Shown: piece after piece, positions 4,874 to 63,587 of the stretch | Numbering within the stretch: the first letter of the stretch is position 1 | Layout: each line of letters opens with the position of its first letter | Assembly: GCA_977020255.1 (NCBI GenBank) | Contig: CDROCS010000703.1 | Location: 62,001-126,000 of the forward strand | From: Obrimoposthia wandeli | Taxonomy: Eukaryota | Direction: 5' to 3' | Length of the DNA: 64,000 nucleotides | Position numbers and translations under genes: made by a program | Notes under the pieces: model-generated | Seen by the model: only the letters and a program-made list of their open reading frames with translations | Databases searched by the model: none | Told to the model about the DNA's origin: nothing

Positions 4874-4907
4874 GGGGGGTGGATTAGACTGGACACATGC
4901 ACCTACT
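4874..4907 (-). repeat. Maverick-type TIR, family A
   Basis: Reverse complement starts AGTAG; matches the ends at 13479, 13658, 35615 and 52197. Confidence 0.8.
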
Positions 4908-10600: not shown

Positions 10601-13600
10601 TTTTTTAGATTTTTCATAATAATTTGTTAATTTTAAAATTTTTAATTCTCTGAATTTAGTTGCAAAATTTTTTAATTATTTGGTAAGAAATTTAAGTTTG
10701 GTAAGTTTTATATATGTATATATATATGTCTTCATTTCCGGTTTAGGTTGAAATGCCTAAAAAGCTGGTGTTTTCAGAAACAGAAAGTTTCAATTTTGGA
10801 AAGTTTATTGAAGCAGATACTAAAAAAGGATACCTTGACTCCTTTACTGTTTGGGGGAAAAGAAGCAAAACTTCTCGGTTACATGGACACCTTGAATAAT
10901 AGAAAATATGTTTATGAGTTCTATAGGCAAAAGTATAATAACTGTAAGTATTTATACATTAATGGAAATTGGTGTATTAATTTATTCGAATAGAGAAAAT
11001 GCAATTGGAGTGTATATCCGTATTTCAGAAAAACATACTTATTTTAAACAAGATCCTGAAATGATTCCAGATTTTATTGTTCCTACGAACTTGTGCACTT
11101 CGGATTTGAAACGCTATATACAGTGATCTGCAAAACAAATCAAACAAGATCCTTTACTACACATTACTATTTAAATTATCTAAAGACACAAATATAACTT
11201 CTCATTTCTTACACAATAGTTTATTTTCTATTACATACGAAATCGCTGCAGAAAAGTACCAAAATCAGAATTACCCCAATTTATTAACAAATCTACTTTG
11301 TAAACGTTGGCAGACAAAAATATAACCGAACTTTCGAAACCAAAGAAACATTTTGGATTTTAAAAATAAATATAAAGTGGCTAATTTCTTATGATTTCTT
11401 CTATTTCTTTCTCTCATTCTTTTTCCCACTCATTAGTAGAATAAACAACCTAATATAATTTGTGTATATTCAAAAGTATTTTAAGGGATCCTCATGTACT
11501 AAATTATATAAAAGTACAACTTAAATATAACTTAATAAAACCTAAAAGAAAACTATTTGAGTAACCTAACGTTACGAATTCGTAAGTAAGAATAATAATA
11601 AACAAATTTAGTTGATTTAATATATGTAACTGATCTGAAAATTATAAATTTAAAACGGAATCAAATCATAATTTTCGAAAGTTCAAATTGAAATACGACC
11701 TTCAAGTTGTTCAGTTAACACTTGAAAAAATTAACATGAATGTAATGGCTTATTCAACGAGTTACAAGGACAAGTCAATTAGAAGAGAGAAACCAATTTA
11801 TCATTGGCGACTGATAGTTCAGCACGATTCACTATGAACTGAAGGCTACCATATATCTTGAGTACCTACTGACAATTTAACAGGTTTTGAAGACTCGCAG
11901 ATATCGACAAAAATATTTACGAAGTATAACAATTTCTTTACGACTAATATTTATGCATTTGAGCAGGTTTCACACACTAAAATATATCAATAATGTACAT
12001 CAATTCAATTACGATTATAAAACTGATGAACTACCATTGTTTTGAAAGCAAGAAAATTGTAAATCCAAATCATCTCAATGGCACAACCAAAGGTACTATA
12101 CCAGTCAGGGTGTAAGGGTTGATAGCAAGATAGGTAATGCAGATAAATCGGATAGAAAACATGGACGTTGAGTTGGAATGATGTAATCACCGTTATCGAT
12201 TCGTTGCATCTGAAACGTTTTAATATGTTGCTGTGTGGTCCTTGGCTTTTCCAGAAAAAAAGTGCGAGACTTCATTCGATTTTGTTGACCAATGCATATT
12301 TAATTAGGTTTACGTACCTCAATGCAAAAAATGTCATATAGCTTTATAAGGAAATATTGAAAGACTTTTATAAAAAAAATATAGTGACGTTCGAAATTAT
12401 CTATTTTATTTAATAGAGTTTAATTTTAAGTTGTAAAAACAACTAAAGTAAATGTCAAAATAATTTTCAAGAAAATATCATGTTATATCAGCTATCAGAC
12501 GTTGTTTATAAATCTAATCATAAATTGAATCAAAAAATCATCTTTCAATAATTTTGGAAATGGCTTTTGATGGCGTTTACATGTTATGAACAATATATAT
12601 GTATGAAAAGTAAACTATTTAGTTCAAAAGGATTTTTATAGATTAGATTACAGATTTAATATTATTTGAAAATATATTCAAAGTTTAATATTAAATTAAT
12701 AATGTTTGCTAATATATAATATATATTATATATAATAAAACGTTGTTTTAACTGCTTATTTGTATCTCATTTTTTATTTTAAAAAAATATTTAAATCATA
12801 CAAATATTTTTGATTAACAATAGTTATATTTTTATGCTAAATATTTTAAATATATGTCAACTTGAATAAATTTAAATAAAATAATATTCATATGATAACT
12901 GATTTTTTTTATTAATTTTACTATGACTGATTTCAAATTAAAATGTTTTCATTGAAATCTCGAGCTCTGATTATAATTGTAATTTTAAAAGTTTTAAACA
13001 ACAATTATACATTTTAATAAAATTTAAGCAATGATATAGTTTATCTTAATACAGTGATCCGATAAAAACTATATAGAAGTTCTTATAAAAATAAAATTAT
13101 TTTATTTTATGAATATAAATTAAAATTTTCATTTTGATTCAAAAAAAAATTTCTACTTCATCAAGTTCACAGATTTAAACTGTACAAGAATCTTCAATGA
13201 AAAAACTCACTTTAACATTATAACATCATATTTTTGGTTTTTATACCAATATTCTACTCTCCAAACTATTCTTTTGCAGATTATTTAATTTTATTCTATT
13301 TGTGTGCTTTATATATTCAAAGATATTATGAAGGAAAATTGAAAACAAGAAGCACATTTGAGTAATAAATCATTGACCCAACAAATATTAGCACTCAATT
13401 TTTTGAAACATCTTACATTAATATATTTTAATAAAAAGGAAACGATTAATCGTTTTTCTATAAATATTTAAACTGTGTAGTAGGTGGATGTGTCCAGTCT
13501 AATCCACTCCCCCCTCCACGTTGCTTTTTCAATTTAAAAAAAAAAATCGCGTACACACATGCACGAAATTTCACTCCACACACATGCACGGTTTTAAAGG

Positions 13601-16600
13601 ACAGTGGTAGCTCCCCCGGGGGGGAGGGGGTGGATTATACCGGACACATCCATCTACTACATACACGTAAATCGGCACTACTACACAGACAGAGGCAGTA
13701 AAATTACAGGTGTGTGTGGTGCACATGAAATTTGATAGGTAGGAAAATCAATATAGGATGCAGCAATTCTTTCTGTATTAACTCCTACTTCACAGACAAT
13801 TTCCTATCTCGAAGCAAGATATAACAGCCGGCCATCGTGATCTTAAATTCACCGCTCGACTGTAAGCACTTCGATTTATTAATTAAAATGTTTAATGGAA
13901 ATATTTCAATTCGAAACAACTTGCAGTAAGATGTTTATCTGCCAGACGTCTATTCGATTAAAACCATCCATAATGAATAATCGCTATCAAATGAGGATTG
14001 GACTGGATTTAAGACATTTAGCTTCCCAAACTCTTAGCAGTTTCAAAGTACAACGATATCTTAATAGACAATCTATTAGCTATCGCCAGAGCAAAAATAC
14101 AACGTATTGAAAGTCGAAACATAAAAGGGAAGTAGATTTATTTTGTGTGGAAATCCCAATTGGTTTATATGTTTGAAACAATATTATGTGTTGAAAATCG
14201 TGCTAATCCCCTAATTTAGTTTAATAATGAAAAACTTCGAATTCCCGGCCCTCCCCATCTGTAATTTGGACTTACACCGGTTCGAATAAAATAACAACCC
14301 CTCTTAGCCTCGACATAACTACGATATAAATAGATCTTCATAACAGTAAGCAAAAGAAATGCAAATAGCAAACCCAACATTACATAAACTAAAAGGAAAT
14401 ATTCAAAATATCGTGCAATAAAAAACTCGAATTATGAGTTTTTTTAAAGTGGTTTCTGCAAGAACTTGGGTCGGAACGATGCAGAGTTACATGAAAGAGA
14501 ACCTTTGTCTATTTACGACAGAATCTGCTGACCAATCTCAATTCAGGAATTCAGGACCGATAGCATCAATGGTTTTGGATGTAAACATGCTGTCATAATT
14601 GCTGCCTCCCTCTCTCCTCTGAAATCGATGTTGATTAGGAGAAAAGATCCCAGACAAATTTGTATTTTAGGGATTTTTTAAAATTTGTTCTGAATTCAGG
14701 TTAGATATATTTTTCAGGATGCTCTTAAAAGAACACCTTTACGTGTCAATTTTTTTCGACATACTTTCTCAAAAAATATATTCTCTCACAAAAGTCAAAT
14801 TATTTATATGATCTCGATGATGACTGCAGATTGGCCAAGGAATTGTCAAATAACAAACAGAGTGAGGGAATATTTGACAATTTACGCTCTGAATCTTCAC
14901 CACAATTTACTGATGGATATAGAAACAGTGACAATGTTGAGCCTGATGCAGTGAGCATGTATATGCATCTTAGGAGCAACGGTGACGACTGCAGATTGGT
15001 CAAGAAAGTCTCAAATAACCAACAGAGTGAGGGAATATTTGATAATTTATACTCTGAATCTTCACAGCAATTTACTGATGGATATAGAAACTGTGACAAT
15101 GTTGAGCCTGATGCAGTGAGCATGTATATGCATCTTAGGAGCAACGATGATGACTGCAGATTGGCCAAGATATTCTCAAATAACAAACAGAGTGATGGAA
15201 TATTTGACAATTTATGCTCAGCATCTTCACCACAATTTACCGATGGATATAGAAACTGAGACAATGTTGAGCCTGGTGCAGTGAGCATGTATATGCATCT
15301 TAGGAGCAACGATGATGACTGCAGATTGGCCAAGAAGTTCTCAAATAACCAACAAAGTGAGGGAATATTTGATAATTTATACTCTGAATCTTCACAGCAA
15401 TTTACCGATGGATATAGAAACTGTGACAATGTGAAATATTCAATAAAATATTACGAAGAATAATGGAAAGATGAAAGTTTCATTATTGTTGTTGTTGAAC
15501 AGCAGGCATACCATCAAAGAGAGGCGTAAATCAAACAACATAAATACCATCTTCACCTAAGTGACACAGATCCTACCAGATCATTGACACAGAATCGAGT
15601 TTGAGAATAGAATTCATTGTAATAAGGCTATCATAGCAAAGAGCTTGTGGTCAGATGTGGCCTGTCTCCACTGTAATGGCTTTATTGTTGAATTTGAAGT
15701 TCAACAACCCAAGAAAATTTGTGACATTTTCCAACATTCCTGAAAAGTTCGTCTTTGATTTGGCTTTTCCAGTACGTTTTGCATCGCATCCTATGTCATG
15801 ACATCACATTTAATGTACGCATATAAAGAAAATTAATAAGTAATAAAGATATTTGTATTGTCTGAAATTAATTGCCTATTAAAGTTCTTTTAAAATGTGA
15901 TATTATATAGGCTAAATATAAATTGGAATGATAAGTTATAATAAATTTAACTAAATAAATATTTCGAAAAAACTCACATATTTGTATAATACTGATATGC
16001 TATTTTCAATTTAATTTTTACAATTAAAGTAATAATAAGCAGTTTAAAAAAAATTAAAGTATGCTCAAAAAACTATTTTAAAATATTTCAAAGCATCAAT
16101 TTAATTAGTTTGAGTTTTTTTAATATGAAAATTAACTATAATATAGATTTATTTAGTATAACCTACATGCGCAATGATAGAAAATAACTCTTTCAAATTC
16201 AGTTTTTGAAAAATTTCCACGATTTAAGAGCTTTTAAATAAAATTAATTTGGTCGTTTTTTTAATTTCAAAATTTTGTATTCTGAAGTAGTTTAAGTCGA
16301 AAAATCTAAATTTGAAAGAATGATTTTAGAAAAACATGTTTGGTTAGGTCAGTGTCAAGTATGAAGCAACCTTTTCTAGATAAAATTAATGCTTTTATTT
16401 CATAAAATTCAAGTCCATTTCGAAACTTTTTTTAGTTAATTAAGTATCATATATATCGATTTGCCCCTTCGTTCAACATCCATACATAGTATTTTGTATC
16501 TATATTTAAATAAGTATTTAGTAAGGTTATTCTGTGTGGGGGTAACTTCAGAACAAAACTTTTGGAAAACAGTCCAATACAAGAGCTTCGATTTTGAACT

Positions 16601-40600: not shown

Positions 40601-43600
40601 ACAAATCAACTTTTTTATCAAAATATATAAAATATATAGAAAGGAGCGCTTTTATAAATAAATTTCGCTTTTGTACGTAACCCGTTTGTAACTTGATTTT
40701 TACTTTAGTTTCACTTTTGTCACGATCCAGACTCATGAACTTTTAAAAAACATTAATTTCCCAGTAACCGTACCAATATAAGGATCCATACACAGCTCAG
40801 CCGAGTAATGAGTGAGAACTTGGTGACGATATGACAATTTTCTCGCAGACAATCTCGGTCATGGTTACCACAACAGCCGCTGCTTGCTGACATGTCTGTG
40901 CCTGGAGTCGTTGACTCGCTACCCACGATATCGTAATCATGGAGGCGGGGGCTTTATTGCAATGGCAAACAGTAGTACCCTCGGAAGCGGGCTTGGAGGA
41001 GACTCAGATAGCAAGCACCACCATGGCAACCCTCACCACGGCAACAACCATCACCATAGCAGCAACCATCATCATAGTAACCACCCCATGGCAACATACC
41101 ACCATAGTAATGCTGCCTACAATCTCACACCCGCCTCCACTGACTTCTACCGCTGCCAACCTCCCTTGACTACCGGAGTTGGCATCGATACCAATCTGCA
41201 GATATATGACGACCTCAGCGCCGTGTCGAATAGTTCAGCGATGCTCATATCAGGAAGTAAAGCCACCAAGACCCCATCTGAAACAGCTGCAGATGAAGAC
41301 GCAAGACTTCTACCAGGCAGTGTATCGGGTAACGGTGGTTACTATGGCTACGTACACCATAACGGGTATCCACCTGGAAGTCAGCACAATGGCGGCCTTG
41401 GCTCAGTTTCCAGTTCTTTATCCAGGTAGGTTTATATCTGTGTATAATCGAAATTGTGCATGATCGAGGTTGTGCATGATCGATGTTGAGTATGATCGAT
41501 GTTGTGCATGATCAAGGTTGTGCATGATCGATGTTGTGTATGATCGTGGTTGTGCATCATCGAGGTTGTGCATCATCGAGGTTGTGCATGATCGAGGTAG
41601 TGCATGATCGAGGTTGTGCATGATCGAGGTAGTGCATGATCGAGGTAGTGCATGATTGGGATAGTGCATGATCGAGATTGTGCATGATCGAGGTTGTGCA
41701 TGATCGAGGTTGTGCATAATCGAGGTGGCGCGTGGTCGAGGTTGTGCATGATCGAGATTGTGTATGATCGAGGTTGCGCATGGTCGAGGTTGTGCATGAT
41801 TGAGGTTGTGCATGATCGAGGTTGCGCATGGTCGAGGTTGTGCATGATCGAGGTTGTGCATGATCGAGGTTGTGTATGGTCGAGGTTTTGCATGATCGAG
41901 GTTGTGCATGATTGAGGTTGTGCATGATCGAGGTTGTGCATGATTGAGGTTGTGCATGATCGAGATTGTGCATGATCGAGGTTGTGCATGATCGAGGTTG
42001 TGTATGATCGGGGTTGTGCATGATCAAGGTTGTGCATGATCGAGGTTGTGCATGATCGAGGTTGTGCATGATTGAGGTTGTGCATGATCAAGGTTGTGCA
42101 TGATCGAGGTTGTGCATGGTCGAGGTTGTGCATGATCGAGGTTGTGCATGATCGAGGTTGTGCATGATTGAGGTTGTGCATGATCGAGATTGTGCATGAT
42201 CGAGGTTGTGCATGGTCGAGGTTGTGCATGATTGAGGTTGTGCATGATCGAGGTTGTGCATGATTGAGGTTGTGCATGATCGAGATTGTGCATGATCGAG
42301 GTTGTGCATGATCGAGGTTGTGTATGATCGAGGTTGTGCATGATCGAGGTTGTGCATGATCGAGGTTGTGCATGATCGAGGTTGTGTATAATCGAGGTTG
42401 TGCATGATCGAGGTTGTGCATGATCGAGGTTGCGCATGGTCGAGGTTTTGCATGATCGAGGTTGTGCATGATTGAGGTTGTGCATGCTCGAGATTGTGCA
42501 TGATCGAGGTTGTGCATGATCGAGGTTGTGTATGATCGGGGTTGTGGATGATCGAGGTTGCGCATGGTCGAGGTTGTGCATGATCGAGGTTGTGCATGAT
42601 CGAGGTTGTGCATGATCGATGTTGTGTATGATCGTGGTTGTGCATGATCGAGGTTGTGCATGATCGAGGTAGTGCATGATCGAGGTAGTGCATGATCGAG
42701 GTAGTGCATGATCGGGATAGTGCATGATCGAGATTGTGCATGATCGAGGTTGTGCATGATCGAGGTTGTGTATAATCGAGGTTGTGCATGGTCGAGGTTG
42801 TGCATGATTGAGGTTGTGCATGATCGAGGTTGTGCATGATCGATGTTGTGTATGATCGTGGTTGTGCATGATCGAGGTTGTGCATGATCGAGGTTGTGCA
42901 TGATCGAGGTAGTGCATGATCGAGGTTGTGCATGATCGGGATAGTGCATGATCGAGATTGTGCATGATCGAGGTTGTGTATGATCGAGGTTGTGCATGAT
43001 CGAGGTTGCGCATGGTCGAGGTTGTGCATGATTGAGGTTGTGCATGATCGGGGTTGTGCATAATCGAGGGTGTGCATGATCGAGGTTGTGCATGATCGAG
43101 GTTGTAAAGTCAGTGTTGATATGTGTTGCTGATTACTTTGCAGACGCTACAGCAACACTCCTCCCCAGTACCCACTGCCAGTGGTTGCCGCTGGAGGAAG
43201 CAACGCCGGAGGGGGCTCATCCACTGGTGGTTATTACTTCCATCCCGGACTGGGTAATTACGTAATTGTGAGCGGCCCGATTGCTGATGGCGGAGGTGGT
43301 GGAGGCAGTCAATACACTGTGGGGACGGCTCCTCCTGGCTACTCATTGGTCCGACAGCAGCCGGTCTCGGTGCAGTCGCCTATCAACCAACTAGAAGATG
43401 AGGTGGTTGTCGAATCGGATAACAACTCGGCTCTATCGGCTGCGCTACAGAGCTCAACCACCCTGTCTCAGGTGCATACATATACAGCTTTGATTTTTTC
43501 CTATGTAAAGCCAATGATTGCATATTTTTTGCTTAATATTTTGCCCAATTTTCTTTCTTTAAGCATGTATTATACAAACCTTTTTCCTTTACCATGTTCC

Positions 43601-45283: not shown

Positions 45284-47270
45284 AACCCACAAACCGTTCA
45301 GAAACAATCCAAAATCCACACAAACTGACCGCTACAGTCGATACACAGTTGTTATCTTTGCAAACTCTGAAATAGTCGACAATCTCCGATTACAAATTGA
45401 CAAAATACACAATCAGATAACATAATCACACATAAATTAACATTCATCACAAGTGAGATATTTGATTAGCTTAGAAACAGTTTAAAATCAAAATTAAGTT
45501 ATCAAAGCCACAATAAATTTCCACTTCCGTAAAATCTTTTATTTTTGACACATGAGTCTTTTGTTTGTATCAGACATGTTTTCTACATTTTCTCTTTTCA
45601 AAAATACATATGGAAATTAAAAAAAAAATCATATACATACGGAAAAGTGAAATTTCAGTTAAATACATCAAATGTTGACTTTGAGAATAAAACAGAAAAT
45701 AATTTATATAAAATCTTTTTCATAAATTTGTAATAAGTAATAAAAAGCAATCGAATGTTTGGAAAAGTAACATCACCAATTTCTAGAACATATCAATTTT
45801 TAAAAATGAGTATATTTATTGACATTTGTTTTAAATGTTAAGTTTGTAAAGTAATATTTTTAAATATTTGAAGTATTTTTATTTTCCTTGAAGGCATTAA
45901 GTCAAATTAATGTAAAAAGAAGATTTTTTGTGAATAAAATAGAAATAAATATCAGAATTCCTACATAATTTGCACTAATTTAAGGAAATGAAATCAATTA
46001 GAAATCATGAAACTCATTGAAAATTGATCATCTATATTCAACTGATATAGTTTGGGTGCAAATTTTGTCACAGAATAATATGTACAAATTGTTTCATCTA
46101 TAATTATTCATAAAATATCATAGAAATATGTCAGAAGCAAGTTGAGATTACTTTTTGGATAGTTTCTTTCAATACAATGTGTATCGGCTTTAGCAACAAA
46201 TTTCTTCGATAATTTATGGCCACATCCTGGCGTTAATCCTCGAAACGCCGGGATATTATACCTCATTGTATTAGTGTGTGTAGTACGATTGAGGTTCTAA
46301 CCGGAATTCCTCCAAAGACTAATTGACCAAACTGAAATGACAACCTCGACAAATGCTGAGATAAATTTGTACAATACAAATTGAAGCGGGAATGTGACAA
46401 ATGCTGAGATCTGAACGAGATGAACTTTCTTGCTGTATATCCTTGTATTTTTGTAATTCTTTGACTAATTATTCACTATTGACATTGCTGATAGTATTTT
46501 TAGATTTATACTTCATTCTGATTTTCTGTATGACTATTCTGCTCATTTGCATGTGGGCATTTTGTGGCGGTTTACATCTTCCATACCATTGTCTCAATAA
46601 AGCCAGACTTATCGTTTCTTTCATTGTATGCTTACTACAATCGATCGAGTGACTTCCGTGTTAAAAAGTGACACCGATTATATAAATCCCCTATAAGCAT
46701 TTCCGAAAATGGCTCGCGAGGGAAAAGGTCACACGTTGTACCAATTGGATAATAATAATCTGAATAAAAATAACAAAATCTGAAATAGGTAAATGCAGAT
46801 AAATAAATATTTAAATGAAAAATGAAAAGATCGAGAAAGGCTAAATGAAGTGCGTATTGTACAGTCAAGTTGGTGAGAAATGCAACAACAATTACAAAAT
46901 ATATTTAGGCCTTTGTGGAGAAAATGAATCAAAACGTATAGTGATAAACCGAAAGCAATTAGACGGCATTCAAGCGATATTAAAAAATTAGCCAGAAAAC
47001 CTAAAATGTCTTCCTAATAATTATCAAATGAAATAAAATATTGTTCATCGAAACCAAAGTTTTTAAAGTTTAGAACCATCTGGTAAAAAAACGTAGAAAG
47101 ATGAAAATAACTCCTAAACTAACTGAAGATTATATGATGAAAATAACAAAATTTATTTTGACAGACATCCGATTTCCCCGATTCAAATCTGATGTAGGAT
47201 GAGAAGAGATTTAAATTGGTCGCACGGTATGAGTAGGTAAAAGGATGGAGTCTAAGCCACTTGACCCCCC

Positions 47271-47625
47271 TGTGTTAAAGATATTTTGAATATTTATAGT
47301 GTAAATCGAATAATGTTAATACTCAAATTATATAAATAAACATTTCTTTAACTAGTAAACTTTGAATAACATGAAGTTATGATTATTTTTAATGTGTTAA
47401 AGATATTTTCGAATATTTATAGTGTAAATCGAATAAAGTTAATACTCAAATTATATAAATAAACATTTCTTTAACTAGTAAACTTTGAATAACATGAAGT
47501 TATGATTATTTTTAATGTGTTAAAGATATTTTCGAATATTTATAGTGTAAATCGAATAAAGTTAATACTCAAATTATATAAATAAACATTTCTTTTATTA
47601 GTAAGCTTTGAATAACATGAAGTTA
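47271..47625. repeat. ~123-bp tandem repeat x3, directly inside the left TIR
   Basis: tgtgttaaagatatttt at 47271, 47393 and 47516. Confidence 0.9.
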
Positions 47626-48846
47626 ATTTTATCAGTTTAAATAAAAATCAATTAAGGAATGTTATAAGGATGTTTTAATTATTTATGTGAGTGTTAATTG
47701 ATCATTATAACATGTGAAAGTTATGTGAGAGAAAACACATACATGAAAATTTACATATTAATTAATATAATGTAAACATATTATTAATGTTATTCATTGG
47801 TTGCTAGTATTAATTTGAAAATTACAAATTATTTTAGGCATAAAATAATGCAATTTTAAAATTAATAAATATTTAAGATATTTAACTTATAGTTATAATA
47901 ATTAGGTTTGTATATACATTTGTTTAAATACATCAAAAGGGATAATATAAAAATAGCGGTAATTTAAAAAATATGTTAGAATTTATCATTTTACAGACTT
48001 TTATCAAAATTTAACTTGAACTTGAAGTATTCTTTTTTTTTTTAAATAAATTCTTTATATTTTAAAAATATCAAATAGTACTTGTAAATTTGTTTATTTT
48101 AATAAATTAGTTATAATTAATATGAATTGTTTTGCGTTTGAAACTATTTTCGTCATTGTTTAAATACATTAATTGTAAACAATAAAAAACCGCGCAATTT
48201 TTAAATTTTAATGTAATAAATTTGTTATTTTTTCTAAAGTTACAGTTAGATTATATAATAATGCTATTAGGCTGACGGACATACATCAATGGATTCGATG
48301 AATAACTTGTGGTAAGATGAATTTTTATCAAATTATTAATTATTTTATAATTAACATTATGTTTAAAATCAAATTTGTTTAATTAAATCAAAGAAACGAT
48401 AAAAAATTTGGCACAAATTTAAATTTTAAAAATATTTTTATTTTAGAAAATTACAAGTATTTTTCTCCAAGACCCTTATGACATGAAATTTAAGTTATTT
48501 AAAGAAATTTTACCATAATTCTTTAGATGCCTAAGCCTGGGAAAAACTTTGTACTAAATTTTCACATAGAATAGTGTGTGTGTGTGATTAGGTAAAACAT
48601 TGAGTGAGTGAACTTTCACATAGAATAATTGATTGATAGATGTGTTGGTACTTTAATATTTAAAAACTTGTTAAATTAAAATTTGTTTAACTTTAATAAT
48701 ATCTAATAAATTAAATTGGCACAAATTTAAATTTAAATTATTATTATTTTGAAGAAAAACAAAATTACAAGTAATTTTTCCGCAAAGAATTGTTTAATTA
48801 CATTAATAAAATGGATAAAAATTTGCGTAAATTTAAATATTTATCA

Positions 48847-48880
<34 letters not shown>
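48847..48880. repeat. (AAT)n microsatellite
   Basis: About 11 perfect units. Confidence 0.9.
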
Positions 48881-48882
<2 letters not shown>

Positions 48883-49761
48883 GTTAGTAAAGTAATTTGA
48901 GTTTATTAACTTTTTCCTTAATATTTATTTTAATTAATGTTACTTTAATATCTTAAAAACTTGTTAAATTAAAATTTGTTTAACTTTACCAAAATCTAAC
49001 AAAATAATTTGGCACAAATTTAAATTTAAAAATATTTTATTTTAGAAATATACAAGTTTTTTTTTTTATTTTTCACCAGAATCTCTTAAAGTATGAATAA
49101 CCTTAAGGTTATATGTGATCTAAATTTTCACATAGAATAGTATGTGTGTTAAAAACCACATTCCTTAACTGATAAAAGTGACCTTTAGCCTTGATTTTCA
49201 CATAGAATAATTGATTGAATACTATATAATTTCTTAATTTATGCCAAATCTGACCTTTAACTTGTGGACGACCTTAAATTTTTTACATGAATAAACTCGT
49301 AATATGTTGACGAATACAACTGTTAAGGTTGAGAATGAAAATTAAATATTTTAGTTGATTAAATACTAAAATAAAAATCCTTGAAAGCAAGGTCGAAAAT
49401 TAAATTAAAATATTAATTTAAGTTTTAGAAGTAAAATTAGTGAAATTTAGGGTAAAATTAGGAGGACCACGAAGGTCGTGTATTATGCGAAAATATATAA
49501 AAGTTTAAAGTTAATTAACAAAAACGACAAAAAATAAGAATAATTAAAAAGAAAAACGGTTAATTAAAACCGTCAATCAAGAAGAAAAAAGGTAAGCACA
49601 TTTCGTGCAGTAAAATCAATTTTAGTTTTTCAGCTGCCGTTGACTGACAGGAAGAATAGTCTCCAGCAATCAACCGTCAATCAAGGAAAAAGTAAGCATA
49701 TTTTGTGCAGTCGAATAATTTTTAATTTCATTTCAGCTGTCGTTGACTGACAGGAATAGAA

Positions 49762-49772
49762 GCTATAAAAGG
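49762..49772 (+). promoter_or_regulatory. candidate TATA box (CTATAAAAGGC)
   Basis: Consensus TATAAAAG upstream of the 34-bp and hairpin arrays; AATAAA at ~51058. Confidence 0.4.
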
Positions 49773-49834
49773 CAGAGGATTTGAACACCAATTCACACAA
49801 ATTCAGAATCAACTCCCTGACTACAGGTTGAGCG

Positions 49835-50225
49835 GAATAGACTCGATCCGAAAGTAACAAGTATATCTGAATAGACTCGATCCGAAAGTAACAAGTATAT
49901 CTGAATAGACTCGATCCGAAAGTAACAAGTATATCTGAATAGACTCGATCCGAAAGTAACAAGTATATCTGAATAGACTCGATCCGAAAGTAACAAGTAT
50001 ATCTGAATAGACTCGATCCGAAAGTAACAAGTATATCTGAATAGACTCGATCCGAAAGTAACAAGTATATCTGAATAGACTCGATCCGAAAGTAACAAGT
50101 ATATCTGAATAGACTCGATCCGAAAGTAACAAGTATATCTGAATAGACTCGATCCGAAAGTAACAAGTATATCTGAATAGACTCGATCCGAAAGTAACCA
50201 AGTATATCTGAAAAGACTCAATCCG
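49835..50225. repeat. 34-bp tandem repeat, ~11.5 copies
   Basis: Unit GAATAGACTCGATCCGAAAGTAACAAGTATATCT, nearly invariant. Confidence 0.95.
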
Positions 50226-50353
50226 ATTAAGAGAAGACGATATCCGAAACCGAAAAGAAGACGATCTCACGAGCGCTCCATACGGAAACTGCGTCGGACA
50301 GCTCACCCGTACCGGAATCAGCGAGTCACTGGTAAGACCACCGACTAGGTTCA

Positions 50354-50790
50354 TTCATTGCCCCTAGTAGGCAATTAGGATATATTCATTACCCCTAGTT
50401 GGTAATTCTACATTTTCTTAATAATACACAAATTCATTGCCCCTAGCTGGTAATTAGGATCACTGTCTCTTTACCACAATCATTGCCCCTAGTTGGTAAT
50501 TAGGATCGGACATTTATTCATTGTCCCCAGCGACAATTAGGAAACCTACCAGACGTTTTTTCCCGTAAGATTCATTGTCCCTAGCTGACAATTAGGTTCC
50601 TTCATTGCCCCTAGTTGGTAATTCGGATAAATATTCATTGTCCCTAGTAGACAATTCGGTAAGACTCATTGTCCACTAGCTGACAATTAGGTTCGTTCAT
50701 TGTCTGTAGTTGACAATTAGGAGTAAGGTTTCATTGTCATCTTGACAATTAGGTTTTTAGGAGATCCATTGTTTACAGTAGACAATTCGG
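50354..50790 (+). repeat. array of 12 short hairpin-forming repeats with variable spacers
   Basis: Consensus TC-ATTRYC-(5-8 nt, mostly CCTAGYW)-GRYAAT-T(A/C)GG; every stem pairs by WC or G.U on the + strand. Confidence 0.85.
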
Positions 50791-51299
50791 GTCAAACACA
50801 CACAGAGAGAGTAAGGAACAAAGAAACATTTAGCTAGAGATAAGAAGTAGGAGCGAAGAAATTTAAGAGAGTTGCGTTATATATTAACCAACCTGAGTAA
50901 GAAGACTAAACTTAAGAAACTTAATCACCTGAACGTAAAATCGATACGTGGTTCATCCCCACTTCTTGTAGAGACTCACAGAAGTCCTTTAGGAATTTTA
51001 TCATACTTTTTAGAAATACGTACATAAACGTATTGTGGTGTTAGTTACGTGAATTTTGAATAAACAATTTCCTACATTAGAACAAGTTGTTTTTACACCC
51101 TTCAGACTAAGAGACATCAAATCAAATACCTTCAGATAGTACAAGAGACTAGGCAACCATAACACTAAGTAGGCCACGACCAACTTTAAGACCTGCTTCT
51201 AATCGAACTCACGTTGGGGTCCTCCGCACATAAGAGGCTCTATACCAAGTTTCGTATAGAAACCCCAACACAACCATGTACTTGAAACTATGAAATTCC

Positions 51300-51850
51300 A
51301 ACTTTTTTAACCCTTCATCTATGGACGACCATACCTATATGGATGAATTCGTCTTCTAAAGATGATTACAACCATGTATTCAAACTTTGACATTTAAAAC
51401 TTGATTTGGTCTATATCCCGACCCTTTGATTTATGGACAGTCATACTTTATGGGTGACTTCGTCTTCTAAAGATGATTACAACCATGTACTAAAACCTTG
51501 ATATTTTAATTTTTTTTTTTTAGTCCGACCCTTTGACCTATGGACGACCACAACCCTTTAGATGTGATGACCAACCATAGTTGACCTTAATTATACCTTC
51601 AAAGTTTCAAGTCAAAACTGACCTTGACCCTTTGATTTATGGACGACCACAACCCTTTAGATGTGATGGCCAATCATAGACGGTCATGACCATACCTTAA
51701 AACCTTCAAGTCAAAACTGACCTTGACCCTTTGACCTATGGACGACCACAACCCCTTGGGTATGTTGGCCGACCATAGGCGGTCATGACCATACCTTCAA
51801 ACCTTCAAGTCAAAACTGACCTTGACCCTTTGAATTATGGACGACCATAG
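51300..51850. repeat. subterminal ~99-bp repeats rich in TGACC motifs
   Basis: tcaagtcaaaactgaccttgaccctttga at ~51607, 51706 and 51805. Confidence 0.8.
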
Positions 51851-51925
51851 TGGTATACCAAAGAAGGTTGGAGACTAAGCCACTTGACCCTTCCCCCCTC
51901 CCCCCTATCTTAACCTTTCTGAGCC

Positions 51926-52064
51926 AGACCCTTATGGTGTGGCAAGACACCCTTATGGTGAGTCAACATATACCTTCATGGTGTGACACCCCTATGGTGA
52001 GGCAACATATACCCTTATGGTATGGCAAGACACCCTTATGGTGTGACACCCTTTAACTTGGTGT
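51926..52064. repeat. seven ACC-N5-GGT palindromic units next to the right TIR
   Basis: (A)CACC/TACC-CTTAT-GGTG/GGTA repeated; the last unit has a longer loop. Confidence 0.75.
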
Positions 52065-52617
52065 GCGCACACGGGGGGGTCAAGTGGCTTAGACTCCATC
52101 CTTCTACCTACTAGTATGGGTATTCATTTTGTTGGCACAATTTGAGGCACGAAATTTAAATATTTAGAAAGTTTTATTGTAATTCAAATTGTTATGAGTA
52201 GGTGGATGTGTCCGGTCTAATCCACCCCCTCACCGGGGGACACTTTAAAACCGTGCATGTGTATGGAGTGAAATTTCGTGCATGTGTCCATCCCACCCGA
52301 AGGGGGTACCCCTACATTTTTACAAAAATTACTTTTAAATTGACCGCTAATCTCAAAGGTGATTAGAGAAGACCACGGGAATCCATATTGACCCCGGTGG
52401 CTTATCGCAGACGAGATTTCAAATAATATGTTTATGTGAATATATTACTACTATTTGTAAGAATATAAATTACTACATGTTTGTAAAATATCTAGGTCAG
52501 TTTATAGGAGAAAAATAGGAAAGATTTATATAATTTAGAGGAGATAAACCAAATACCAGTCAAAATTCTTTTCAAAACATTAATTAAATCAAACATAAAA
52601 CAACATATTGGCTTTAC

Positions 52618-60624: not shown

Positions 60625-62421
60625 CCCTCGTGAGTATATCCCTCGTGAGTATATCCCTCGTGAGTATATCCCTCGTGAGTATATCCCTCGTGAGTCTATC
60701 CCTCGTGAGTATATCCCTCGTGAGTATATCCCTCGTGAGTCTATCCCTCGTGAGTATATCCCTCGTGAGTCTATCCCTCGTGAGTATATCCCTCGTGAGT
60801 ATATCCCTCGTGAGTATATCCCTCGTGAGTATATCCCTCGTGAGTATATCCCTCGTGAGTATATCCCCCCGTAGTATATCCCTCGTGGGTACATCCCCCG
60901 TGAGTATATCCGTCGTGAGTATATCCCTCGTGAGTATATCCCTCGTGAGTATATCCCTCGTGAGTATATCCCTCGTGAGTATATCCCTCGTGAGTATATC
61001 CCTCGTGAGTATATCCCTCGTGAGTATATCCCTCGTGAGTATATCCCTCGTGAGTATATCCCTCGTGAGTATATCCCTCGTGAGTATATCCCTCGTGAGT
61101 ATATCCCTCGTGAGTATATCCCTCGTGAGTATATCCCTCGTGAGTATATCCCTCGTGAGTATATCCCTCGTGAGTATATCCCTCGTGAGTATATCCCTCG
61201 TGAGTCTATCCCTCGTGAGTATATCCCTCGTGAGTATATCCCTCGTGAGTATATCCCTCGTGAGTATATCCCTCGTGAGTATATCCCTCGTGAGTATATC
61301 CCTCGTGAGTATATCCCTCGTGAGTATATCCCTCGTGAGTATATCCCCCGTGAGTATATCCCTCGTGAGTATATCCCTCGTGAGTATATCCCTCGTGAGT
61401 ATATCCCTCGTGAGTATATCCCTCAGTGAGTCTATCCCTCGTGAGTATATCCCTCGTGAGTATATCCTCGTGAGTATATCCCTCGTGAGTCTATATCCTC
61501 GTGAGTATATCCCTCGTGAGTATATCCCTCGTGAGTATATCCCTCGTGAGTATATCCCTCGTGAGTATATCCCTCGTGAGTATATGACTCGTGAGTATAT
61601 CACCCGGGAGTATATCCCTCGTGAGTATATCCTCGTGAGTATATCCCTCGTGAGTATATCCTCGTGAGTATATCCCTCGTGAGTATATCCCTCAGTATAT
61701 CCCTCGTGAGTATATCCCTCGTGAGTATATCCCTCGTGAGTATATCCCTCGTGAGTATATCCCTCGTGAGTATATCCCTCGTGAGTATATCCCTCGTGAG
61801 TATATCCCTCGTGAGTATATCCCTCGTGAGTATATCCCTCGTGAGTCTATCCCTCGTGAGTATATCCCTCGTGAGTATATCTCTCGTGAGTATATCCCTC
61901 GTGAGTATATCCCTCGTGAGTATATCCCTCGTGAGTATATCCCTCGTGAGTATATCCCTCGTGAGTATATTCCTCGTGAGTATATCCCCCGTGAGTATAT
62001 CCCTCGTGAGTATATCCATCGTGAGTATATCCCTCGTGAGTATATCCCTCGTGAGTATATCCCCCGTGAGTATATCCCTCGTGAGTATATCCATCGTGAG
62101 TATATCCCTCGTGAGTATATCCCTCGTGAGTATATCCCTCGTGAGTATATCCCTCGTGAGTATATCCCTCGTGAGTATATCCCTCGTGAGTATATCCCTC
62201 GTGAGTATATCCCTCGTGAGTATATCCCTCGTGAGTATATCCCTCGTGAGTATATCCCTCGTGAGTATATCCCTCGTGAGTATATCTCTCGTGAGTATAT
62301 CCCTCGTGAGTATATCCCTCGTGAGTATATCCCTCGTGAGTATATCTCTCGTGAGTATATCCCTCGTGAGTATATCTCTCGTGAGTATATCCCTCGTGAG
62401 TATATCCCTTGTGAGTATATC
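60625..62421. repeat. 15-bp satellite (CCCTCGTGAGTATAT)n, ~120 copies
   Basis: Direct inspection; highly homogeneous. Confidence 0.98.
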
Positions 62422-63084: not shown

Positions 63085-63587
63085 AGGATGGATTTTAGCT
63101 CACTTAGTACCCCCTCCACCCAAGGGGTTGTGGTCATCCATATATGAAGTGTTTGGTTCAGTTAGGACTTAAAGGTTTGAAGGTATGGTTGAGGTCAACT
63201 ATGGTTGGCCATCATATCTACAGGGTTACAATTGTCCATAAATGAAGGGGTTTAAAATATCAAAGTTTGAGTATTTTAGTTAAGATCATCTTTAGAGGGC
63301 GAATTCAACCATAATGGTATGGTCGACCATAAATGAAAGAGTCTAAAAATGTTGGAATTTAAAAGTTTTAAATACATAGTTATGGTTGTCATAAATTTGT
63401 GCGTTTAACCATGTAACTTCAAAGCTTCATAACCTTTCTCAGTCAGACCCCTATGGTGTATCCAGCCATCCTTGGGATGTTACGCAACCACGTATGGTAT
63501 GATGTAATCACATTCACTTCCGGCTGGTGTGCGCGTACGGGGGAGGGTGTACTAAGAGGGCTTGACTCCATTCTTCCACCTATTTCG
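63085..63587. mobile_element. degenerate ~500-bp family-B mini-element
   Basis: 63430-63587 is homologous to 51910-52112; 63120-63400 is the reverse complement of the 51300-51600 subterminal repeats. Ends are imperfectly inverted. Confidence 0.6.

Follow-up and report, generated by a model that had tools for sequence, protein, structure and literature searches.

An array of conserved, putative RNA hairpins in the long terminal repeat of a Burro-like Ty3/gypsy element of Obrimoposthia wandeli

Within a 64,000-nt stretch of DNA from Obrimoposthia wandeli (contig CDROCS010000703.1; hereafter the window), twelve short hairpin units stand in a row inside a solo long terminal repeat (LTR) of a Ty3/gypsy element, and this LTR in turn interrupts a non-coding element bounded by terminal inverted repeats (TIRs). 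The features to which we refer are as follows.

47232..52112, no strand assigned: host non-coding TIR element, interrupted by the LTR and not the owner of the hairpins
49317..49320, no strand: 4-bp target duplication CAAC, left copy (the 11 of 11 empty sites have one CAAC each)
49321..51270, + strand: solo LTR (TG...CA) of a Ty3/gypsy element of about 23 kb, delimited by ends common to the fetched loci and by same-strand pairs
49764..49771, + strand: TATA box motif, which precedes the array in 45 of the 55 long loci, with a predicted start about 25-30 nt downstream
49835..50226, + strand: 34-bp tandem repeat of 11.5 copies, predicted first exon
50332..50337, + strand: splice-donor motif GTAAGA, a putative donor by motif, 24 nt before the first unit
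50356..50787, + strand: hairpin array of 12 units, from a pattern scan of the window and 847 units in 69 arrays
50937..51270, + strand: 3' block conserved across LTR types, with AATAAA at 51059-51064 and two CCTTCAG motifs
51271..51274, no strand: right copy of the target duplication CAAC (single at empty sites)

Each unit is composed of a C, a 6-bp stem of the ATTRYC/GRYAAT type, a loop of 5-8 nt with a conserved first C and fifth G (C1 and G5), and T-M-G-G. The twelve units start at 50356, 50387, 50435, 50481, 50519, 50573, 50603, 50636, 50667, 50698, 50732 and 50767, with gaps of 9-34 nt between them and loops of 5-8 nt, and the array ends at 50787. A pattern scan of the 64-kb window recovered exactly twelve units, every one in this array and on the + strand, as a sequence-only reading of this DNA had counted; the stems are also those that it listed, which by their three variable-side letters are one GCC/GGC, one ACC/GGT, three GCC/GGT, six GTC/GAC and one GTT/GAC, and the four non-Watson-Crick pairs are, as it noted, all G.U on the + strand. 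Since the 1.35-Gb genome contains 34,026 matches to a two-unit pattern and 0 to a reversed control, the array is not a product of chance. Rfam covariance models gave four chance-level matches, none of which lies over the array, and a metagenome scan gave a single isolated match to one unit in GC-rich DNA, which we judged to be chance. The twelve-unit array is a real and probably selected feature with a putative function, and one that was first assigned to the wrong context.

That first context was a non-coding Maverick derivative. Maverick/Polinton elements are recognized by AG..CT termini, TIRs and a 6-bp target duplication, and the host TIR element carries these terminal hallmarks: AG..CT ends, a 44-nt TIR that is 95% complementary and 6-bp flanks (GGTATG/AGTATG) with one mismatch. 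In both of its halves we found no Maverick/Polinton polymerase, integrase or capsid gene, the longest stop-free frame being 76 aa. However, 12 loci were retrieved for the right flank, the window among them, and the remaining 11 have a single CAAC and 0 units; because all 11 other host copies are empty at the insertion site, the array belongs to the nested LTR and the Maverick attribution has to be given up. The similarity of sister copies to the window ends at 49321 and 51270, and in a DNA search 40 of 3,007 candidates were scored, all of them 97-100% identical; several form same-strand pairs with a spacing of 21.1-21.4 kb. The host TIR element is itself a young family (1,489 first-look candidates, the best 40 at 99-100%), and a diverged, inverted relative lies near the window end on the opposite strand, at about 63147-63560. 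A further TIR-like repeat family, beginning AGTAGGTGG, has several copies in the window (4874-4907, 13479-13658 and 52197-52287), one of them 85 nt after the host element, and at 41439-43105 and 60625-62421 there are long tandem arrays of 16-bp and 15-bp repeats, respectively, in which GC skew is strong.

In the fetched loci, 5' LTR copies are followed by a primer-binding site (PBS) and a common internal end precedes 3' LTR copies. The PBS matches tRNA-Met(CAT) genes of the same genome, and since sister LTRs are followed by this primer site, the + strand is the sense strand. The primer-site pattern has 5,363 genome matches. The primer site and the 5' LTR end are 8 nt apart, the sequence directly before the 3' LTR is without a polypurine tract (e.g. 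loci L003, L004 and L006), and the tRNA-Met(CAT) genes are found at G000:C2252:485-11858 and C2837:586194-598329, on C2252 in tandem with a period of about 284 bp. Pfam searches with 13 frames of one full copy identified a CCHC knuckle, a Monjiviricetes fusion protein (PF24664), a BIR domain (PF00653), two protease-like stretches, RING, reverse transcriptase, RNase H, integrase, two DSPc domains and three more RING domains, and left three of the 13 frames without a match. The two DSPc phosphatase domains follow the integrase in tandem (L032:4224-5429, minus strand), one of them below the Pfam cut-off. A BH-like stretch was seen by eye in a 458-aa frame, where Pfam gave no match for a BCL2-like domain, and MATH and ankyrin domains had no Pfam match in the 13 frames of this one copy (a stretch in L031 was left out).

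Giant gypsy elements of planarians have been described as Burro/GYPSM1, which exceed 30 kb and have MATH and ankyrin domains and a BCL2-like domain before env (PMC6431247). Our element shares with them its membership of the giant Ty3/gypsy size class, its thousands of copies, gag-CCHC, a mononegavirus-type fusion protein between gag and protease, BIR and the protease-RT-RNase H-integrase series, but unlike them it measures about 23 kb and carries two DSPc and three RING domains after pol (compared with PMC6431247); LTR anatomy and hairpins do not come up in the excerpt of that source. On length and predicted domains, set against the published Burro description, it is classed as Burro-like and not as Burro, which suggests a planarian host. 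Comparison of about 950 sites gave 0, 3 and 6 differences for three LTR pairs, and a fourth candidate pair has 19; the Ty3/gypsy family is young.

The organization of the LTR places the array with respect to predicted transcription and processing signals. Over the 290 nt downstream of the array, none of the 55 long loci has a TATA-like match, and the 34-bp tandem repeat that follows the TATA motif in the window varies in copy number and is replaced in other subfamilies. Despite such unrelated upstream sequences, a G|GTRAGW motif stands 20-28 nt upstream of the first unit in 64 of 69 arrays, so that the distance from array to donor motif is nearly fixed whereas that from array to TATA ranges over 283-893 nt; in the window copy the array lies about 560 nt from the predicted start. 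At the other end, the conserved 3' block is present in 88 of 90 PBS loci, with AATAAA or ATTAAA in 88 of 88 and two CCTTCAG motifs in 77 of 88, and about 730 nt separate the donor motif from AATAAA. Lying between TATA and AATAAA, the array is probably transcribed, within an unusually long R; judged from these motifs, U3 would comprise about 470 nt, R about 1.3 kb and U5 about 190 nt, and the array would occupy the first part of an intron. By eye, small stems are present near the start of the conserved block (50937-51270), the two CCTTCAG motifs after AATAAA are acceptor-like, and splicing from the donor motif to them would excise the 5' poly(A) signal. Four sequencing runs of unrecorded kind proved to be contigs of one sample with even cover, which are uninformative on expression, and so is the finding that none of the 15 joints listed, beyond which there are 351 more, is a GT..AG joint.

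To follow how the units vary, we assembled the first 90 of 100 listed primer-site matches and 33 other loci, a sample that over-represents the subfamily of the window because 30 loci are its best matches. These loci yielded 69 arrays of 4-16 units, 847 units in all. Their stem states are GTC/GAC in 504, GCC/GGT in 119, GCC/GGC in 84, ACC/GGT in 66 and, in 38, a last unit whose stem base is a C.T mismatch; rarer are GTT/GAC (13), GTC/GGC (12), GCC/GAC (3) and eight singletons. The T after the stem is invariant (847/847), and loop C1 and G5 are conserved in 633 and 679 of 683 units, the number in which the arms are separated by 7 nt, while loop positions 2-4 and the spacers change among arrays. 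Across 54 LTRs of the window's subfamily, shared variants per site amount to 0.44 in spacers, 0.125 in flanks, 0.11 in stems and 0.083 at loop C1 and G5, and in internal units the shared stem variants fall at positions 4 and 5 only.

It is at these two positions that the strands can be told apart. Genome-wide, stem position 4 is G.U in 4,457 matches, against 21 matches on 21 contigs for the A.C mirror ACC/GGC (21 of 70 A.C matches), and stem position 5, counted with loops ending GYW, is U.G in 1,955 matches against 36 for C.A, each on a contig of its own. A count by eye over the first 100 U.G matches listed gave at least 15 same-strand pairs at distances of 19-23 kb, as expected for both LTRs of one element, and from subfamily to subfamily U.G turns up at units 1, 3, 4, 6 and 10. 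The states seen can be ordered into an unbroken path along which pairing is always possible (GTC/GAC, GTC/GGC, GCC/GGC, GCC/GGT, ACC/GGT), and in the last unit the loop ends switch as a pair, being C..G in 12 units and T..A in 45. In 35 distinct stem strings, positions 4-5 make up 870 cells, of which only 5 cannot pair; after shuffling of right arms within arrays, a test that ignores the relatedness of the arrays, the figure was 92.6 +/- 5.5, and 0 of 2,000 shuffles came as low as 5. Pairing of the right arm with the left arm of a neighbouring unit was tried and rejected, with 37-78 unpairable cells per offset against 5 within units. In the 54 LTRs, shared changes outside the stems show no bias of the G.U type (33 vs 38), although private changes are C>T-rich on the + strand (31 vs 9 G>A), which is a bias towards G.U.

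The comparison has its counter-cases. A last-unit lineage with C.A and a closing C-G pair has been amplified to 123 matches, many of them in LTR pairs, and the G.U state GTC/GAT, with 66 matches, is barely commoner than its A.C mirror ATC/GAC, with 48. As GTC/GAT was not amplified, G.U pairing alone is insufficient and a stability threshold must be invoked. The large counts also reflect amplification of few events, with independent stem changes perhaps numbering only about ten, and the invariance of stem positions 1-3 and 6 in internal units is explained equally well by sequence-specific DNA binding. The sequence-only reading had proposed selection on + strand pairing and held that equal frequencies of A.C and G.U across copies would speak against it; the sense G.U states (4,457 and 1,955) and their mirrors (21 and 36) are far from equal and pairing is kept within units, so its proposal survives this check, and we regard selection on sense-strand pairing as likely.

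Two explanations that dispense with RNA pairing have to be set against these data. If the units were palindromic DNA sites forming an intronic enhancer or insulator, as multimerised sites do in other LTR elements, their half-sites would presumably resemble those of Sox-like or TALE/homeodomain-like proteins. The roughly 20 conserved positions per unit and the mostly fixed 7-nt gap (683/847) would suit such sites, as would the unrelated AT-rich tandem repeats that occupy the same place in other subfamilies and the tissue-specific expression reported for planarian transposons (PMC8532177). Yet double-stranded DNA cannot distinguish a G.T on one strand from an A.C, independent half-sites would tolerate GCC with GAC and ACC with GGC, both of which are at background, and in 5 of the 12 window units the ATTGT core is lost through GCC or ACC arms, with intact flanks. 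The strand-asymmetric counts thus disfavour the Sox/HMG palindrome that the sequence-only reading had kept as its alternative, and we consider DNA sites a rather improbable explanation. Neutral tandem expansion of a chance palindrome, with arms repaired by template switching, draws on the facts that this zone of the LTR is full of fast-changing tandem repeats, that units were amplified together with their spacers in several subfamilies and that private changes have the + strand C>T bias. It would leave unexplained why shared changes are four times as frequent in spacers as in stems, why the motif is kept where the spacers are unrelated and where it stands elsewhere in the LTR (L109, L143), and why there are thousands of stable G.U units without A.C mirrors where repair predicts perfect pairs; neutral expansion is already largely refuted and in our view very improbable.

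Folding energies bear on the threshold. As sense RNA, the six amplified stems have energies of -3.0 to -5.7 kcal/mol and the four rare stems 0 to -1.7 kcal/mol, and with -3.2 kcal/mol the amplified A.C exception falls among the former, so that sense-RNA energies reconcile both exceptions, the amplified A.C lineage and the rare GTC/GAT; this threshold was noticed after the counts, on ten motifs. Antisense-RNA energies show no split between amplified and rare stems and + strand DNA energies a poor one. For the 460-nt array region as a whole, folding is modestly better than in shuffles on both strands (z = -2.3 on + and -2.6 on -), which is why the strand evidence lies in the comparison of variants and not in the energy of the region, and the minimum-energy fold pairs arms of different units. 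Single units with flanks fold as hairpins in 183 of 207 distinct variants. In whole-array ensembles, 8 of 12 units form their own hairpin in more than half of the sampled structures when the span is 25 nt, whereas once spans of at least 30 nt are allowed, 10 or 11 of the 12 do so in less than half. Since arms of naked RNA often pair between units, local hairpins would need folding during synthesis or capture by protein. An alternative hairpin, in which the loop CCTAGTT pairs with a downstream AATTAGG, wins in silico for some units (e.g. unit 4) but is unconserved, and we rejected it because TAGG/TCGG and the loop middle vary independently.

The array is an optional part of the LTR. It is carried by 36 of 90 sampled elements (about 40%), scattered over the tree, and is absent from 54; by a looser count, requiring at least 2 units, 37 of 88 LTRs are of this type (type 1). 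A second palindrome (AGAG-N-gap 4-5-RCTY), searched for over the 300 nt that lead up to the conserved block, was found in 0 of 37 type 1 LTRs and in 44 of 51 others, a comparison that leaves out the 2 of 90 loci without the block and for which a Fisher value is overstated because subfamilies are related. This palindrome is mostly AGAGC/GCTCT or AGAGT/ACTCT in 1-5 copies (L080, L100, L108, L126, L142 and others), and its closing pair exchanges C-G for T-A with no excess of G.U (C.A 4, U.G 3). Array-less LTRs also have unrelated AT-rich tandem repeats in the same zone (L070, L072, L075, L105, L142, L146, L148, L150, L154), in several cases right behind a donor-like motif. A tree of the conserved block, itself limited by recombination, requires 12 changes of array presence, against 28 in shuffles, and at least 7 are forced by well-supported branches. 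Such a distribution suggests exchange by recombination or repeated loss.

This optional occurrence bears on packaging, the function that the sequence-only reading had put forward. Retroviral packaging signals lie just after the donor, near the 5' end of the RNA, and the array has a corresponding place directly after the donor motif; the array-bearing subfamily is moreover the largest cluster sampled (27/90). However, gag fragments of array-less elements are 73-96% identical to an array-bearing copy over the main matches and post-primer leaders are closely similar in both LTR types (30 loci), and with 54 of 90 elements lacking the array while gag is near-identical, and at least 7 changes of presence on the tree, a universal packaging signal is disfavoured. 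A better candidate is a tandem repeat in the leader after the PBS (L069-L098), which in both LTR types has TCGAG ... CTCGA and TCGGG ... CTCGA stems (137 and 71 cases), the latter being G.U on the + strand. A multivalent protein-binding RNA, as proposed in the sequence-only reading, is still favoured, but its capsid-packaging role is weakened: an essential Gag packaging signal is unlikely, and we hold a Gag packaging or dimerisation signal of any kind to be improbable.

We somewhat favour a reading in which the array is a multivalent row of RNA hairpins that docks one RNA-binding protein and thereby controls splicing, export or 3'-end processing of the element's RNA. The array region would be transcribed and, with R at about 1.3 kb, present at both ends of the RNA; the hairpins would form during RNA synthesis and then be held by protein. 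Each would dock the same candidate RNA-binding protein, probably encoded by the host, which would read the shape of the stem together with the single-stranded flanks, a host protein being favoured over one of the element for the sole reason that the cassette varies while gag does not. Docking would steer splicing, export or 3'-end processing, the exact step being the least certain part, and regulation at the donor motif would keep or export unspliced genomic RNA. Regulation of the donor is favoured because the array stands at a fixed 20-28 nt from the donor motif and is not tied to the start site.

The same RNA hairpins might instead act elsewhere, in TAR-like control of elongation or in stability, translation, localisation or piRNA handling. 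All structural evidence for RNA hairpins applies equally to these roles, the array would also lie in the 3' untranslated end of every transcript that ends in the 3' LTR, and TAR is a hairpin of the R region (PMC12789967). The distance of about 560 nt from the predicted start, together with a TATA distance that varies as the donor distance does not, argues against them, and we rate another step of this kind as unlikely.

Known systems offer partial parallels for such control at the donor motif. HTLV RxRE is a retroviral R-region and export RNA element, and unlike TAR, the MPMV CTE and RxRE, which are single elements, the array comprises 4-16 small interchangeable hairpins and is absent from about 60% of sampled sister elements. 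It is like HIV TAR and the MPMV CTE, which are treated in PMC12789967, in being a structured element of the sense strand, within the terminal repeat or close to it, with a putative protein reader, and the predicted R of about 1.3 kb is unlike the 15-250 nt given there for retroviruses. As in the LTR of foamy virus, where RNA structure decides whether the donor in R is recognized, the donor motif lies inside R upstream of the poly(A) signal (PMC3694450); no tandem hairpin array was found in the part of that source seen, and here the two motifs are some 730 nt apart. Cer1/CERV of C. elegans is an invertebrate LTR retrotransposon with a dedicated protein needed for export of unspliced RNA, and the excerpt of that source names no cis element (PMC10309623).

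The Su(Hw) array of Drosophila gypsy consists of twelve non-palindromic DNA sites outside the LTR. What ours shares with it is about a dozen (putative) protein sites, set at variable distances close to the 5' end of a gypsy element; it differs in lying inside the LTR and in its strand-specific conservation of G.U. The excerpt of PMC5416891 reports twelve zinc fingers and does not confirm the number of Su(Hw) sites. For the function of the array, the TAR, CTE, foamy-virus and Cer1 precedents are analogies.

Known RNA motifs did not fit. An iron-responsive element has a C bulge, a 5-bp upper stem and a CAGUGN loop, and we rejected this match because our units have a 6-bp stem and a 7-nt loop with variable positions 2-4, only C1 and G5 being similar. 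Musashi (UAG loops), Smaug (CNGG), hnRNP A1 (UAGG) and U1A (AUUGCAC) were likewise rejected, their motifs being broken by the loops CCTCGTT, CACAGTT and CGAAGTT and by the TCGG flank (314/847). In the literature searched we found no description of such a hairpin array; the Grohme 2018 Burro paper, Repbase and supplements, which may describe these LTRs, lie outside that search. We regard the array as apparently a new variant of structured LTR RNA elements with a putative function.

Thousands of young copies amount to a natural mutagenesis screen, in which a constraint on RNA structure, an apparent stability threshold and an optional, exchangeable LTR cassette can be read. LTR variation is usually interpreted as variation of promoters and enhancers. 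A tentative and more speculative extension of our reading is that one gag-pol body is combined with swappable RNA cassettes inside the R of about 1.3 kb, either 4-16 MS2-like hairpins or an exclusive second set, each recruiting a different host RNA-binding protein, such that LTR diversity might tune the fate of the RNA (cell type, export, escape from silencing) post-transcriptionally, beyond promoters. If our reading is true, the array would be a new RNA motif with a findable partner protein, the first cis-regulatory anatomy found for Burro-like elements within the literature searched, and a ready multivalent RNA tag for an animal group poor in tools.
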